DNA of 64,000 nt from a virus. Positions within the stretch are counted from its first letter, which is position 1. The number at the start of each line of letters is the position of its first letter. A program made the position numbers and the translations under genes. Below are positions 3,895-63,529 of this stretch, one piece after another. The notes under the pieces were generated by a model. It was given only the letters and a program-made list of their open reading frames with translations, made no database searches and was not told the DNA's origin. Location: the IMG/VR virus record IMGVR_UViG_3300027760_000838; one strand, written 5' to 3'.

Positions 3895-4215
3895 TTAAAA
3901 TTCACTAGGTTGTTCATCGGCCATGGCCAGAATACAGTCATTATCGATTTTACGTATGGTTGTAATAGAACCATCTTCGTTTTCCACTTCGATGCCTCTT
4001 GTCCAACGTCCGTGTTCAATAAGAACCCATTCGCCTAATTTAACTTCATTCTGCTCGGGACCCACAGCGTAAACTCGGCCCCAACGTGGTCGAATACCTT
4101 CTGTTTTGCCGTCATCACTGTTGAGTATAATGCCACCGGCAGTTACCCTGGCATCGAAATTCATGTCTGCAACCAGTACTGTATCTCTAATAGGTTTTAG
4201 TTGTCCTTTTACCAT
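3895..4215 (-). CDS. groES: Co-chaperonin GroES/Cpn10
   Basis: LKPIRDTVLV, TAGGIIL mobile loop, GRVYAVGP, VKLGEWVL. Confidence 0.88.
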   Translation of the reverse strand: MVKGQLKPIRDTVLVADMNFDARVTAGGIILNSDDGKTEGIRPRWGRVYAVGPEQNEVKLGEWVLIEHGRWTRGIEVENEDGSITTIRKIDNDCILAMADEQPSEF

Positions 4216-4224
4216 ATGTTCCTC

Positions 4225-4434
4225 TTATTTTGTATTGCCTTTGTAATATTCCTGCATGACGTCTTCACGCTTGCGAATGATTTTGCCCCCAGGACCAATT
4301 TCATCTCCCCGAGCATTTACTCTAGCATTGCCTACAGCCAATGCTAGTTCGTTTTGATTTCTTAGTTTTTCCATGTCGACTTCAGTGCCTAACATGCTTC
4401 TATAACTTTTTCTTGCTGTTTCTTTCATTGACAT
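4225..4434 (-). CDS. Hypothetical protein (69 aa)
   Basis: SD AGGAG upstream; in operon context. Confidence 0.7.
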   Translation of the reverse strand: MSMKETARKSYRSMLGTEVDMEKLRNQNELALAVGNARVNARGDEIGPGGKIIRKREDVMQEYYKGNTK

Positions 4435-42514: not shown

Positions 42515-43347
42515 TATACTTCCAATACAATATTTGGATCCCAACCACTGGGATCTTCGTAACCTTCATAACCACGTGGGTTACATACAACTCTAGTCTC
42601 ACCGATCACATAGTCAAATGCATGATGCGTATGCCCATGTGTCCACAACTTGATTTGAGGATGATCAAGAATGAATTCACTAAGGTCACTGCTAAATGCA
42701 CCATTTTGAATACGTTCACCTTTGTACATTTCATGTGTGCTCAACTTGCTAGGACTGTGATGACCCACTACTACATATTTTTTACTGGGATCATTTTCTA
42801 CCACATGTTTAATATAGGCCACATGATCATGATGTTTGTTAACTGTATCCTGTGGACGTAGTCTGGCATAGTTGCGTTGACTATTACGAATAATACGATA
42901 ATCATTCATCATGTCTGATACCGAATATAAGGTAATAGGATCACCCTTGTTCATGTCAGTCCAAAGAGTACAACCAACAAAGATCACATCCTCGATTTGT
43001 TTAGCATCCATTTCTAGAAAGTAAACATTAGGATATACTGCACACTCTTCCCGTAGATAATCAATGGCATCAGGAAATTTGCCGTGATAGTATTCGTGGT
43101 TACCTGCAACAAAAATCACATGCGGAAATCTATCACTACACCGCTTTAGAAAATTTCTATAAAGTATAGCAGCATTTTGTCTAGCACCAAAAGTATTTTT
43201 TTTATTCAAATAGTCAGCAGGGTAGTCATGTAGGTCCTGTGCCACCATGATATCTCCACTGAGAATTAGCACATCACAATTTTGCTCATTGTAAATTTCG
43301 ATGTCGCCGAATTCTAAATGGATGTCGCTAATTAGTTTGATTTTCAT
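42514..43347 (-). CDS. Calcineurin-like metallophosphoesterase
   Basis: SDIH, LSGD, GNHE, HH, HGHTH. Confidence 0.9.
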   Translation of the reverse strand: MKIKLISDIHLEFGDIEIYNEQNCDVLILSGDIMVAQDLHDYPADYLNKKNTFGARQNAAILYRNFLKRCSDRFPHVIFVAGNHEYYHGKFPDAIDYLREECAVYPNVYFLEMDAKQIEDVIFVGCTLWTDMNKGDPITLYSVSDMMNDYRIIRNSQRNYARLRPQDTVNKHHDHVAYIKHVVENDPSKKYVVVGHHSPSKLSTHEMYKGERIQNGAFSSDLSEFILDHPQIKLWTHGHTHHAFDYVIGETRVVCNPRGYEGYEDPSGWDPNIVLEV

Positions 43348-44033
43348 TGTGCCACTTTAACATAATTAAGGCGAGATTCTTCTACTTTAAATTTCCAATG
43401 CTTACGATGATCTTTAACTTTGGCCTTGACCAATACAGCCGGGCCTAATTTCATTTGTTCCTTAGCAAACCATGTAGCTAATTTATTATCAATTATAGCA
43501 CAGATGTTCCAAGAAACAAACTTATCTGAGTATTCTGATTGAATAATTTCACAATCTTTATCAGCCAATTTAGTTCCAGGTTGTCCCAAAAACCCTTCAT
43601 CAAGCTCACGTAGTTTACGCTTGATTTCCTTTTCTTCCAAGCTCTTATAATACCATTGTGGCATATAAGCAACAAGCCCAATACTAACTTCGGGAATACG
43701 CCCAGTTTCCAAAAAACGACTAATGTCCATTAGAAAATCATTTTCGCCACTGATCACATTGAACATGAGCTTACGTCCATATTGTTGGATAACATCAGCC
43801 AGCTCACGATCTTCATCTAACACTTCCATAGAAGGCGGTCGTTCATTTTCCCTTCTACGCAATTCTTTTTTGATAAGCTGTTTGTTGGCACTTTTGACAA
43901 ACAAACATTCATTAGTGTCTTCATCATATACAGATTGTTCTACTTTTAGATAGCCATTGTTGGTTCTATAAGCAGCACAGGCCAATTCCAATACTGGACG
44001 AAGATCAATCATTTTGAGTTCTAAAGTCATCAT
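43344..44033 (-). CDS. Hypothetical protein (229 aa)
   Basis: Long ORF with a possible OB-like C-terminus. Confidence 0.7.
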   Translation of the reverse strand: MMTLELKMIDLRPVLELACAAYRTNNGYLKVEQSVYDEDTNECLFVKSANKQLIKKELRRRENERPPSMEVLDEDRELADVIQQYGRKLMFNVISGENDFLMDISRFLETGRIPEVSIGLVAYMPQWYYKSLEEKEIKRKLRELDEGFLGQPGTKLADKDCEIIQSEYSDKFVSWNICAIIDNKLATWFAKEQMKLGPAVLVKAKVKDHRKHWKFKVEESRLNYVKVAQ

Positions 44034-44200
44034 TTTGAAATTTTGGTAATGATTAAGGATTCGCCTTCTTGTTTAACATCTATCTGATCGCCTTCTTTCA
44101 ATCCTAACTTCTCTGATATTTCAGGGGGGATTTTGAATAGTACATGATCGGGGTCATCAGGGATATCTTCAAAAATATCTTCCACGTTGTAAGTAGTCAT
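44030..44200 (-). CDS. AbrB/MazE/SpoVT-like small DNA-binding protein (56 aa)
   Basis: Hand translation MTTYNVEDIFEDIPDDPDHVLFKIPPEISEKLGLKEGDQIDVKQEGESLIITKISK; below the ORF-track cutoff. Confidence 0.75.
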   Translation of the reverse strand: MTTYNVEDIFEDIPDDPDHVLFKIPPEISEKLGLKEGDQIDVKQEGESLIITKISK

Positions 44201-44742
44201 AATCTATCATCCTCTTCTTCGGGTAATACGCACCAACCTAAACGATCTAAGTCCTGTTCAACTTCTCTAGTTACATAACCTTCTGGTACATGATCAGGCA
44301 TACGACCATGAGTTTCATCGTAGCTGTCATAATCAGCAGTGCCACGTCCACTACAATACCAATCCATGTAGTCGCCCTTTTCCTGCATGTCGGCAATAAT
44401 GCCACCAGCATAACGCCAAGTGCAAGTCCAACGTTGATCTTTCAAAATGTTCCACATTTCTTTTTTACGAAACTGTCGATTGCATAGAGCAGCATAAAGA
44501 TTCTGTGCATAACCATTGTTAGTTCGTACTTTTTCCAACATCCAATCAGTGGTACGCAGGTCGTATTCTAAATTGTCTTTTTGCCATTTGGGATCGTTGA
44601 CTCGATCTCTGGATTCACGACGGCTGTCTTCGTACATTTTTATGTAGGCTTGATTGGGTTGTTCATTAGTTCGCTCACAGCGAGCCAAGTATCTTTTTAT
44701 TTGAGTAGTATAACGTTCTGGGCTTGTACTAATCTTTTTCAT
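44197..44742 (-). CDS. Hypothetical protein
   Basis: Start reset to MKKISTSPER (44742); the longer ORF-track start runs through the tRNA-like element. Confidence 0.7.
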   Translation of the reverse strand: MKKISTSPERYTTQIKRYLARCERTNEQPNQAYIKMYEDSRRESRDRVNDPKWQKDNLEYDLRTTDWMLEKVRTNNGYAQNLYAALCNRQFRKKEMWNILKDQRWTCTWRYAGGIIADMQEKGDYMDWYCSGRGTADYDSYDETHGRMPDHVPEGYVTREVEQDLDRLGWCVLPEEEDDRL

Positions 44743-44759: not shown

Positions 44760-44867
44760 TGTAGTCGGCAGGATTCGAACCCGCAGAGCGCGACAATGTC
44801 GAATGCCCGTCCCCAGCTTTTCCTTTCAGAAGAAGCGGGAGGTCTACCACTTTCCACTAACGACTAC
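44760..44867 (-). ncRNA. tRNA-Leu-like RNA lacking an anticodon loop and encoded CCA
   Basis: 7-bp acceptor GTAGTCG/CGACTAC plus A, D-loop GTGGAAAGTGGTAGAC, T-arm GCGGG-TTCGAAT-CCTGC, GAAA-capped long hairpin in the anticodon position, long variable arm. Confidence 0.7.
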
Positions 44868-44873
44868 TTTCAT

Positions 44874-44902
44874 AGTATACAGTCTTATAGGTCCAATGTC
44901 AA
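44874..44902 (-). promoter_or_regulatory. Sigma70 promoter TTGACA-N17-TATACT for the tRNA-like RNA
   Basis: The -10 ends 7 nt before G1 of the element. Confidence 0.75.
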
Positions 44903-45970
44903 CTGTTGTGATTCCGCCACACGCATTTCTCTTCCAACTCTATGTACTGTATCAATCAATACCGAGACATTCTCAGGCGGTGTGTATTGACTAATACCAT
45001 GCCCTAAATTGAATACATGACCAGTATTGCTGGGACCAAAACTACGTACAACTCTTTCTGCTTCACAAGCCACTGCTTCTGGTGTGCTACGCAACACCAC
45101 AGGGTCCATATTGCCTTGTAAGGTAACTCTATCGCCAACTAATGCTCTAGCCTTGGCCAAATCAACGGTCCAATCCACGCCCAACGCATTTACACCAATC
45201 TCGGCTTGATCATCTAACCAAAGTCCACCGCCTTTGCTGAAAGCAATATTGGGGATGACTACGCCATCTTTGATTTTGATTAGTCCTTCTACAATTTGTC
45301 GCATATAACTCAAGCTGAATTTCTTATAAGAATCTTCACTCAATACACCGCCCCAACTGTCAAAAATCATAACAGCTTGAGCTCCAGCAATGATCTGTGC
45401 ATTTAAGTATTCAGTAACAGCATCAGCAGTAATGTTCAAAATCTTGTGCATGAGGTCAGGACGAGAATACATCATGCTTTTGACTTTGGCATAATCATCA
45501 CTGCCGCCGCCTTCAATCATGTAGCAGGCCAGTGTCCATGGACTACCACTAAAACCAATTAATGGTACTCTTCCGTTAATTGCACGACGTGTCATGGTAA
45601 TAGCGTCCATAACATAGCGTAGCTCTTTCTCTACATCTGGCACAAACAGTTTGTTCACATCGTTTTCATCTTTAATTGGGTTGGCTAGTTTAGGACCTTC
45701 ACCGTCCACAAAGTGTAAGCCCAAGCCCATGGCATCTGGTACTGTAAGAATATCTGAAAAGATAATTGATGCGTCTAAGTCATAACGATCTAAGGGTTGT
45801 AATGTTACTTCACAGGCATATTCGGGAGTTTTACAAAGATTTAAAAAGCTGCCGGCCTTACGTCTTGTTTCGTTGTATTCAGGTAAGTAGCGTCCGGCTT
45901 GGCGCATGACCCAAACAGGAGTTGTTTCTGTTGGTTGCTTGAGTAGAGCTCTTAAAAATATATCATTCAT
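44885..45970 (-). CDS. hemE: Uroporphyrinogen decarboxylase
   Basis: [44 protein letters not shown]. Confidence 0.97.
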
Positions 45971-45972
45971 AA

Positions 45973-46899
45973 TTATATTGTACCTAAAATTTTTGCCATT
46001 ATTTTTTTGCCTCCACGAGCAAGCATGGCTTCAGCCATGGAAACGGCTAATTTTTCTGCTTCTTTCCAAGGACCTTTGCAATTAGCCGAAATAATATCAG
46101 TACCATCTGGCATGACAATAAGACCTTGCATGGTAAAAGTTTGATGGTCTCCAATTTCTGCATATGCACCTAAGGGCAATTGACAACTGCCGCCAAGACG
46201 TTTACTAAAAGCACGTTCAGCCCTTACACAAATGGTAGTTTCAATATCAGTCAATGCTCCTATGGCCTCCAATAGATCGGATCTGTCATTTAATATTTCT
46301 ATGCCCAATGCTCCTTGCCCAGGCGCTGGTACAATTATTTTGGGGTCTATCTCACTGCGTATTCGATGTCCTAACCCTAGTCTTTTTAATCCTGCCGCTG
46401 CTAAAATAATGGCATCGTATTCGCCTGCATCTAATTTGGCTAACCTAGTGTCTAAATTTCCACGTAAAGACGCCACCTTTAACAAAGGAAATTTCCTTAG
46501 CAGTTGCCCTTGTCTACGCAAACTACTAGTGCCCACTACGCTACCTGCTGGTAGTTCAGCTAGGCTATTAAATTTATTACTGACAAATGCGTCTCTAACA
46601 TCCTCTCTACGAGTAATGGCTGCTAGACTAAATCCATCAGGCAAGTCCATTGGTACGTCTTTCATACTGTGAACTGCTAAATCCGCACGACGTTCTTGTA
46701 GTGCCACTTCTAATTCTTTAATGAATAGGCCTTTGCCACCAATACTGGACAAAGGTTGATCTAGAATTTGATCGCCCTTTGTGGTCATGCCTAATATTTC
46801 CACTTGATATTCGTTTAGTTCCAAAGATTCTTTTATGTGATTAGCCTGCCACATGGCTAATCTCGATTCACGACTGGCTATAATTAGTTTATTTTCCAT
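45973..46899 (-). CDS. hemC: Hydroxymethylbilane synthase (porphobilinogen deaminase)
   Basis: [48 protein letters not shown] (dipyrromethane Cys). Confidence 0.97.
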
Positions 46900-51253: not shown

Positions 51254-51337
51254 TGGTGCCCCAGGGGAGACTCGAACTCCCACGCCTCTCGGCACTGGCT
51301 TCTAAGACCAGCGTGTCTACCATTCCACCACCAGGGC
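51254..51337 (-). tRNA. tRNA-Leu(TAG)
   Basis: 84 nt, CTGGT-CTTAGAA-GCCAG, CCA; G1 is shared with the HNH stop codon. Confidence 0.95.
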
Positions 51338-52011: not shown

Positions 52012-52040
52012 AGTATAGCATCAGAGCACTACACTGTCAA
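52012..52040 (-). promoter_or_regulatory. Sigma70 promoter TTGACA-N17-TATACT for the tRNA cluster
   Basis: Near consensus, about 40 nt upstream of tRNA-Glu. Confidence 0.75.
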
Positions 52041-63328: not shown

Positions 63329-63529
63329 TCACCATTTTCCTTCAGGACATTCGGCATTTCTTAATTTGGTTTTTGCATCAACTATGCAAAAACATTTACG
63401 ACATTGTCGAGTGATGTTTATCAGATGTTCGCAACTGTCACAGATACTTAATCGATTCGTGCTTATTTCCTTTGGGGCAATAAGCCTGTCAGCAACTTTA
63501 GTTTTAAATTTTTCTACGATACTGGACAT
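63329..63529 (-). CDS. Small Cys-rich metal-binding protein (DUF6171-like)
   Basis: CDSC...QCRKCFC...ECPEGKW; TATAAATA at 63563-63570. Confidence 0.65.
   Translation of the reverse strand: MSSIVEKFKTKVADRLIAPKEISTNRLSICDSCEHLINITRQCRKCFCIVDAKTKLRNAECPEGKW

Follow-up and report, generated by a model that had tools for sequence, protein, structure and literature searches.

What use could a virus have for a transfer RNA (tRNA) without an anticodon loop? The question is raised by a stretch of 64,000 nucleotides (nt) from the IMG/VR virus record IMGVR_UViG_3300027760_000838, hereafter termed the window (64 kilobases, kb), in which all genes lie on the minus strand. Between the phage gene for uroporphyrinogen decarboxylase (hemE) and an open reading frame (ORF) termed ORF181, with its ATG at 44742, direct reading of the minus strand reveals a tRNA-shaped element of 108 nt that runs from G1 at 44867 to the discriminator A at 44760 (window coordinates are used throughout). 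Codon supply is the usual explanation for phage tRNA genes, and more recently the replacement of host tRNAs cut by defence nucleases has been offered; the family described here fits neither. We propose, with a probability of about 0.72, that the element is a phage gene, present in one copy, for a stable RNA that derives from class II tRNA-Leu, does not decode, and acts in trans and off the ribosome. No description of such an RNA was found in Rfam 15 or in the literature searched, and the RNA family is apparently undescribed.

A preliminary description of the locus, made from the DNA letters alone, had recognized a 7-base-pair (bp) acceptor stem, the discriminator A, a T arm, a D region of the tRNA-Leu type with two additional nucleotides, a long variable arm, and a hairpin in the position of the anticodon arm. 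Our re-reading of the sequence agrees with this layout (Table 1). The D region GTGGAAAGTGGTAGAC is the same as GTGGAATGGTAGAC in the window's own tRNA-Leu(tag) plus 2 nt, and its loop GAAAGTGGTAG equals the tRNA-Leu loop GAATGGTAGA plus 2 nt. The hairpin TCCCGCTTCTTCTGAAAGGAAAAGCTGGGGA has 12 bp, two one-nt bulges and a GAAA loop, with a predicted folding energy of -11.2 kcal/mol (RNAfold). The discriminator is followed by TAC and not CCA, whereas an encoded CCA ends all nine ordinary tRNAs of the window, a difference already pointed out in the preliminary description.

We ran the tRNA finder and the Infernal search against Rfam that had been recommended along with that layout. With default settings, ARAGORN made no call on the element, and when introns were allowed it forced a poor tRNA-Gln onto it. 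The Rfam tRNA model (RF00005) gave 21.6 bits (E 0.046), below its cut-off of 29, and apart from this sub-threshold hit no family in Rfam 15 matched. Neither ARAGORN -m nor Rfam detected a transfer-messenger RNA (tmRNA) in the element. Among the homologues introduced below, ARAGORN made a call for no more than two, L031 and L036, both reported as tRNA-?(Tyr|Leu) with an anticodon of 4 bases, and none of 12 passed the Rfam tRNA threshold. Folding of the single sequence was not significant (z = -1.25). Given this z value and the Rfam score below the cut-off, the case against chance rests on comparison.

For this comparison we used 59 distinct homologues, 18 located beside phage hemC-hemE and 41 from IMG/VR. 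The first group, the hemE set, was reached via relatives of the hemE protein, which led to syntenic phage contigs, and a pattern of the RNA then added 15 metagenome contigs; all 18 distinct versions follow hemC-hemE. The wide set came from a looser D-region pattern, which gave at least 119 IMG/VR loci. At least 56 of these have a complete frame of T stem, T loop and acceptor stem, and they yielded at least 41 further distinct sequences. The family occurs in at least 57 IMG/VR contigs and in many contigs of freshwater metagenomes, and the sequences that carry it extend from contigs of some 50 kb up to complete genomes of 322 and 400 kb. Although the neighbouring proteins share only 45-70% identity from carrier to carrier, the RNA architecture is kept. 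The family is widespread among phages. It escapes Rfam and the standard tRNA finders and is for this reason unannotated; with a covariance model of the 59 sequences, it could be detected. When the region and a homologue were compared by BLAST with 50,697 records of isolate phages, no relative was found, the sole hits being 30-nt T-arm/acceptor matches to tRNA-Tyr genes. Early IMG/VR searches with patterns from the window's own D loop or from the variable arm gave nothing or one contig; the variable arm proved to be clade-specific. The variable-arm pattern also had no match in 185,579 bacterial and archaeal species genomes, and the looser D-region pattern had 120 matches there, all of them lacking a tRNA frame.

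The stems of the homologues covary. Within the hemE set, 95.2% of the cells form standard pairs in a MAFFT alignment and 95.9% in a model-fitted one, against 35-52% when the partners are slid. Seven pairs vary on both sides, and the covariation score of 0.26, compared with 0.15 for shuffles, was reached by none of 500 shuffles. In the acceptor stem, pair 3-70 is GC or AU and pair 6-67 is CG, UA or UG, both in the hemE set and in the family, and across the family pair 2-71 is UA or CG and pair 5-68 is UA, AU or CG. One pair of the outer anticodon stem occurs in the hemE set as CG, AU, GC or GU, the next as CG, UG or UA, and the foot base pair of the inner helix as UA or CG. In the T stem, pair 50-64 is CG or UA in the hemE set and CG, UA or GC in the family, where pair 51-63 is AU or GU. 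Across the 59 collected sequences, 411 of 413 acceptor cells and all T-stem cells are paired, partly by way of the selection filter; the variety of pair types within these two stems is independent of that filter. On a tree of the adjacent hemE DNA, pair-preserving switches arise independently in several clades, and in the clade of the window, where no CCA is encoded, a C-G pair has become U-A via U.G. Such recurrent compensatory switches exclude chance and a decaying pseudogene, the reading for which the preliminary description had proposed the covariation check. Judged by these comparisons, the element is a real and conserved RNA gene under selection.

What is conserved in the letters is the acceptor end and the elbow of a tRNA. 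All 59 have A as the discriminator, TTCGANN forms the T loop in 58/59, and the D loop reads GAAT(T/A)GG(C/T)AG. The third pair of the D stem is a U x C mismatch in all sequences but L020, which has C-G. In the variable arm of 21-31 nt, an outer stem leads through an internal loop or bulge to a short inner stem, capped by an ATT or NTA triloop in 58 of the 59; this inner stem differs among members (GTC/GAC, GAC/GTC, CGAC/GTCG, GAGT/ACTC), and the constancy of the arm within the hemE clade reflects the narrowness of that clade and the search pattern. CCA, as ACCA, is encoded in 50 of the 59, and the window's clade without it accounts for 6 of the 18 hemE-set sequences. The missing CCA is thus true of the window copy and peculiar to its clade, and it is not a trait of the family.

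The arm in the anticodon position shows the opposite of such constancy in sequence. Among the collected members it is 15-37 nt long, with 5-15 bp and 32 different loops of 3-10 nt, including eight GNRA and two UUCG loops and sharing no sequence; some arms of the wide set are five pairs and a tetraloop, with nothing more. Not one of the 59 has the canonical 5-bp stem with a 7-nt loop, which bears out the earlier claim that the RNA has no anticodon; the homologues are not ordinary tRNA-Leu. In the hemE set, alignment is possible for the outer 4-5 pairs, for a single bulged U that is conserved, and for the pairs with which the inner helix begins. The rest of the arm differs in length and sequence even where the hemE proteins are 95% identical; at the place where L013 has TAAAT, for example, the window arm carries 12 inserted nt with GAAA at their end. 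Nevertheless, the 15 distinct arms of the hemE clade all fold as single hairpins (mean z = -2.2 relative to shuffles). The closed hairpin in place of the anticodon arm is therefore a property of the family, whereas its GAAA tetraloop, stressed in the preliminary description, is common only to the window copy and the near-identical L032. Compared with the proposal of a removable insert discussed below, the pattern is better read as a trace of how the arm arose: a central insertion would have converted the near-palindromic loop of a Leu anticodon into a helix.

Within the window's clade, the distal hairpin occurs in two forms, one with the 12-nt insert bearing GAAA and one with the 5-nt TAAAT, whose distribution is at odds with the hemE tree. 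The one contig of run X13 that spans the arm (44810-44840) carries the form shorter by 8 nt. The two forms point to recombination or repeated insertions and deletions at 44810-44840. We also considered the palindrome CGACATTGTCG as a DNA operator and rejected the idea, as its only other exact copy lies within a small Cys-rich ORF. That ORF, of 66 amino acids (63329-63529, minus strand), has a zinc-ribbon-like CxxC...CxxC arrangement, and we judged the shared copy a coincidence.

The promoter in front of the element is as regular as its stems. In the window, TTGACA, a 17-nt spacer, TATACT and ATGAAA precede G1, a consensus promoter of the sigma-70 type. All 18 hemE-clade homologues carry TTGACA, a 17-nt spacer and TATAAT or TATACT, placed 6 nt before nucleotide 1; in the whole collection, 57 of 59 have a -10-like hexamer whose end lies exactly 6 nt before nucleotide 1, and nucleotide 1 is always a purine. 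Promoters of the TTGACA-17-TATACT type are rare, with 4 found in the 64 kb against 0.27 expected, and the one before the element is the sole consensus-grade match just upstream of the downstream genes. The fixed distance from the -10 hexamer to a purine suggests that transcription likely begins at or next to G1, where the preliminary description had placed it. Such a transcript would have a leaderless 5' end with little or no need for trimming by RNase P. A second consensus promoter, TTGACA-17-TATACT at 52012-52040 (minus strand), stands where the tRNA cluster begins, 41 nt upstream of tRNA-Glu.

Descent from tRNA-Leu, also claimed earlier together with a real RNA gene and its own promoter, agrees with the D-loop match, the homologues and the promoter geometry. 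Besides the D loop shared with the phage's own tRNA-Leu, it is indicated by our covariance model R1, which scores the element at 112.7 bits and finds its next best match in the window at tRNA-Leu(tag) with 29.3 bits; the best matches outside the family are this tRNA-Leu and a tRNA-Ser (28.7 bits). A 118-nt stretch in the tRNA cluster of another phage (G005, the contig of L063, 8512-8629, minus strand) also scores 28.7 bits with model R1; it exceeds ordinary tRNA length and may be another odd tRNA-like gene.

Would such an RNA still be recognized as tRNA-Leu? Leucyl-tRNA synthetase (LeuRS) of Escherichia coli depends on A73, the A15-U48 pair, G18G19, A20a and contacts of the D loop with the T loop, and needs neither the anticodon nor the variable arm for charging (PMC9976931). 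The letters of bacterial Leu identity, A73, A14, A15 with U48, G18G19 and A20a, are present in the element; the T at the U48 position precedes the T stem in all 59, and the T loop contains TTCGA in 58. With these letters in place and the anticodon dispensable, charging by LeuRS is a reasonable idea. The host LeuRS, judging from the identity letters, probably binds the RNA and may leucylate it.

The life of the RNA could then be pictured as follows. The RNA keeps the acceptor end and elbow of a tRNA, with the 7-bp stem, the A, the T arm and the D loop with G18G19, as well as the long variable arm. In place of the anticodon loop stands a closed helix whose length and sequence are arbitrary and which often ends in a stable tetraloop. 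Since that loop is closed by a helix, the RNA can neither pair with a codon nor reach the decoding center, and an RNA unable to decode must be used off the ribosome. Host enzymes would trim its 3' end to ACCA as they do for a tRNA. In the window's clade, a host enzyme would add the CCA, because the related complete phage genome encodes no CCA-adding enzyme. The RNA, recognized and possibly leucylated by the host LeuRS, would finally act in trans as a competitive look-alike, uncleavable in the anticodon loop, for a tRNA-binding factor, as a dedicated carrier of leucine, or as the partner of a phage protein.

The number and surroundings of the genes are in line with action in trans. Model R1 found one member per record in the complete 400-kb relative, the complete 322-kb genome and three partial genomes, with ordinary tRNAs far below; the 400-kb relative carries 27 ordinary tRNAs, and the 322-kb genome has terminal repeats. 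The gene immediately downstream varies by lineage, being ORF181 in the hemE clade and elsewhere a histone-like Hc1 protein, a HExxH protein, tRNAs, a GNAT protein or glycosyltransferases. One copy per genome and differing downstream genes argue for action in trans rather than for a gene-specific leader.

Several observations weigh against the RNA as we propose it. The D stem is weak, with two Watson-Crick pairs and the conserved U x C, and one more nucleotide than in tRNA-Leu precedes it, such that the core may fold unlike that of a normal tRNA. An encoded CCA has been lost in the clade of the window. At 44790, where every hemE-clade relative has T, the window copy is alone in having C, which turns an A-U pair of the variable arm into A.C. 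The conservation of the Leu identity letters could be inherited elbow architecture and not selection for charging. The wide set was taken with a fixed D pattern and a filter on T-stem and acceptor pairing, so that conservation there is partly ascertainment. One metatranscriptome run gave just a 154-nt hemE contig that leaves the element uncovered, which as contig data is uninformative either way. Finally, no terminator follows the RNA, and an ORF with a Shine-Dalgarno sequence lies 5-70 nt downstream in most loci, which leaves room for a role in cis on that messenger RNA.

In such a cis role, the element would be a tRNA-shaped 5' module of the downstream messenger RNA, either cut off by tRNA-processing enzymes, which would define the 5' end of the messenger RNA, or kept for tuning of stability or translation. 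We consider this unlikely, although more than the missing terminator speaks for it. In one clade, the final A of the CCA is also part of the Shine-Dalgarno sequence AAGGAG; in L027, the downstream gene has been replaced and the RNA together with the Shine-Dalgarno stretch retained; and the downstream genes have no other consensus-grade promoter just upstream than that of the RNA. Precedents are outlined for the t-elements of plant mitochondria (PMC1920247) and the tRNA-like fold of the yjdF riboswitch (PMC9142559). However, an acceptor/T minihelix or a plain hairpin would suffice as a signal for processing or stability, and such a signal would have no need for an A in 59/59, a CCA in 50/59, a D loop of the Leu type or a structured variable arm. 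The element is moreover present once per genome, even in those of 322-400 kb, and is not a module reused before many genes, and the genes that follow it are unrelated between lineages, being ordinary tRNAs in two loci.

A different proposal, which the preliminary description had raised against itself, takes the element for a decoding tRNA-Leu whose hairpin is a small insert between positions 34 and 35, removed to restore a 7-nt loop. Without CTTCTGAAAGGA, the stem of the window copy would read U.G, C-G, C-G, C-G, G.U and carry the loop CUUAAGC with the Leu anticodon UAA, and L013 without TAAAT gives the same loop; cyanobacterial tRNA-Leu(UAA) genes have group I introns at just this 34/35 site. 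We nevertheless hold it to be very improbable. Only a part of the hemE clade would regain the loop upon removal of the insert. In the hemE set, where this was examined, the would-be position 33 is C in 8 of 18 sequences, and the flanking letters covary as pairs (CUU..AAG, CCU..AGG, CCU..GGG), with would-be anticodons UAA, UAG and UGG. Many arms of the wide family have only 5-7 bp and a UUCG, UUAG or GNRA loop, and no loop would remain after removal. The inserts of 5-13 nt contain no intron core and are far below self-splicing size, and the one-nt bulges of the hairpin do not amount to the 3-4-3 bulge-helix-bulge recognized by archaeal tRNA-splicing enzymes. To our knowledge, no bacterial enzyme removes such 5-13-nt inserts. 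Least credible of all is a decaying tRNA-Leu pseudogene or a chance resemblance to tRNA. The low Rfam score, the weak D stem and the fold z value would suit it, as would the absence of CCA and the A.C mismatch in the window copy, but against them stand 59 distinct homologues in divergent phages that keep one architecture, compensatory changes in every testable stem, a promoter conserved with its spacing, and a base-pair replacement within the very clade that lacks CCA.

How does the proposed non-decoding RNA relate to known tRNA-like molecules? With class II tRNA-Leu (RF00005; in the window tRNA-Leu(tag), 51254-51337), it has in common the acceptor stem, the A, the D loop GAAT-GGTAGA with G18G19, the short D stem, the long variable arm, the T arm and, in most members, the encoded CCA. 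It differs by the closed hairpin of 15-37 nt without a 7-nt anticodon loop, a longer variable arm (21-31 nt) with a conserved triloop, the conserved U x C in the D stem and the extra nucleotide before it, and the sub-threshold Rfam and ARAGORN results. A minimalist E. coli tRNA-Leu without anticodon and variable arms is still charged by LeuRS (Larkin et al. 2002, as summarised in PMC9976931). In those variants, the acceptor end, A73 and the D/T elbow suffice for LeuRS, and the element keeps all of these; they are laboratory constructs, whereas the element is a natural phage gene built on the same logic, with putative charging.

The tRNA-like domain of tmRNA is a natural parallel in that it is non-decoding and aminoacylated, has an acceptor stem, T arm and CCA, and carries a long helix in place of the anticodon arm. 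However, tmRNA has the G3.U70 alanine pair, no D stem, pseudoknots, a tag reading frame and the partner SmpB; in our family, pair 3-70 is A-U or G-C in 59/59, a D arm is present, and there is no reading frame. The vtRNAs of murine gammaherpesvirus 68 and mascRNA are tRNA-shaped, processed by tRNA enzymes and CCA-tailed, and have roles outside decoding. Bacillus cereus tRNA-Other is outlined as tRNA-like, processed, CCA-tailed and non-decoding as well (PMC3399842). Unlike the element, these RNAs keep an anticodon-like loop, are eukaryotic, or are single chromosomal genes. We know of none among them that forms a phage family with a helix-closed anticodon loop. YrlA, a bacterial Y RNA-like molecule, is a non-coding RNA of bacteria and phages whose module of T arm and D arm mimics tRNA, but there the acceptor-like stem is closed and the anticodon-side helix opens toward the Ro-binding stem, the reverse of the topology seen here. 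The phage tRNAs that evade anticodon nucleases (PMC10264068, PMC11464382, PMC11555353) demonstrate the value of phage tRNA genes against tRNA-targeting defences; these tRNAs decode, with altered loops, and replace the cleaved host tRNAs, whereas the element could only compete for binding. By its anticodon arm the element falls outside the tRNAs, and by the corresponding tests also outside tmRNA, YrlA and intron-containing tRNAs.

Table 1. Positions of the element, its parts, its promoter and the adjacent genes in the window
Feature	Coordinates	Strand	Remarks
tRNA-shaped RNA, G1 to discriminator A	44760..44867	-	sequence, covariance, model R1 112.7 bits
-35 box TTGACA	44897..44902	-	inside the last codons of hemE
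-10 box TATACT	44874..44879	-	ends 6 nt (ATGAAA) before nucleotide 1
Acceptor stem, 5' strand GTAGTCG	44861..44867	-	partner 44761-44767; 7/7 Watson-Crick
D arm: weak stem A10-U25, G11-C24, then U x C; Leu-type loop GAAAGTGGTAG with G18G19	44840..44858	-	
Anticodon-position arm: closed 12-bp hairpin, two one-nt bulges, GAAA loop, 31 nt	44810..44840	-	
Variable arm CGGGCATTCGACATTGTCGCGCTCT, 25 nt: two-part stem, ATT triloop	44785..44809	-	
T arm GCGGG-TTCGAAT-CCTGC	44768..44784	-	5/5 T-stem pairs, loop TTCGAAT
Acceptor stem, 3' strand CGACTAC	44761..44767	-	followed by discriminator A at 44760
hemE, uroporphyrinogen decarboxylase, upstream gene	44885..45970	-	Pfam URO-D, E 7e-134
ORF181, 181 amino acids, next gene	44197..44742	-	start codon 17 nt after the discriminator
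ORF229, 229 amino acids, C-terminal OB fold, two genes downstream	43344..44033	-	AlphaFold2 (AF2) model, predicted local distance difference test (pLDDT) 95

Downstream of the element in the window, ORF181 is probably co-transcribed with the RNA. About 2,950 relatives make up its family; most are metagenome proteins without a name, and Trp/Cys motifs are conserved among them. ORF181 matched neither a Pfam nor a PHROG family, and its AF2 model matched no fold in the PDB (Foldseek E > 1, best VIA Z 3.5). In 16 of the 19 wider-family loci with 5.3 kb or more of downstream sequence, a relative of ORF181 follows the RNA on the same strand, at a distance of about 0.35 kb or else of 3-5 kb. In the AF2 model of ORF229, an N-terminal helical domain precedes the OB fold at residues 147-229. 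The best match of this OB fold has Z 7.7, and the anticodon-binding domain of aspartyl-tRNA synthetase (AspRS) reaches Z 6.5; this is a generic nucleic-acid-binding fold. The model makes ORF229 a possible nucleic-acid binder in the operon of the element, and a possible partner of the RNA. A relative of ORF229 is found about 1.9 kb downstream of the RNA in the group of loci with the HExxH protein, as in the window. The recurrence of ORF181 and ORF229 may reflect conserved gene order among related phages or a functional module.

From these pieces one may sketch a phage device that uses host tRNA-Leu charging outside translation, together with the ORF181 and ORF229 families. In it, host LeuRS would leucylate the RNA, or the RNA would at least occupy LeuRS or another tRNA-binding factor, and the RNA would be a dedicated leucine donor or an uncleavable competitive inhibitor of a tRNA-targeting anti-phage enzyme of the host. 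This sketch is speculative, and we think it rather unlikely in this specific form. If charged, the RNA would be a natural, virus-made look-alike of an aminoacyl-tRNA for work off the ribosome; if a decoy, it would represent a new kind of RNA-based counter-defence. The preliminary interpretation is supported in part; the roles it suggested, a decoy, a modulator of uncharged-tRNA sensing and a Leu donor for L/F-transferase feeding ClpP, are speculative. The complete 400-kb relative encodes no L/F-transferase, no CCA-adding enzyme (head domain) and no class Ia synthetase. A decoy specific to class II tRNAs and directed against Schlafen was considered and set aside, as bacterial Schlafen cuts the anticodon arms of Lys, Met, Ala and other tRNAs and not those of class II specifically (PMC13056530).

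Upstream of the element, the phage hemC-hemE pair is intact (44885-46899, minus strand). A link to heme synthesis, in which Glu-tRNA feeds the C5 pathway next to hemC-hemE, was rejected. Neither hemE nor hemC occurs in any of the at least 56 wider-family loci, so the heme neighbourhood is incidental; furthermore, the 400-kb relative encodes no glutamyl-tRNA reductase (GluTR), and the RNA has no anticodon for glutamyl-tRNA synthetase (GluRS) to recognize. The hemE protein of the window is 67-70% identical to those of Rhodocyclaceae (Aromatoleum, Azoarcus, Zoogloea), a similarity that hints at a betaproteobacterial host or donor. The sequencing runs that contain most of the sampled stretch are labelled as freshwater or lake metagenomes.

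In the wider family, the gene downstream of the RNA is most often that of the Hc1 histone-like protein (Pfam PF07432, E 4e-14), found in 34 of the at least 56 loci, and the small HExxH protein follows in 13 of them. The Hc1-type gene, resembling histone H1, encodes 62-67 amino acids and lies 27-67 nt 3' of the RNA, for example at 4173-4361 (minus strand) of L137. The HExxH protein (L056, 1421-1732, plus strand; L134, 10662-11000, minus strand) has about 105-113 amino acids, a signal peptide, conserved cysteines and no Pfam family, and from its sequence it may be a tiny secreted metalloprotease-like protein.

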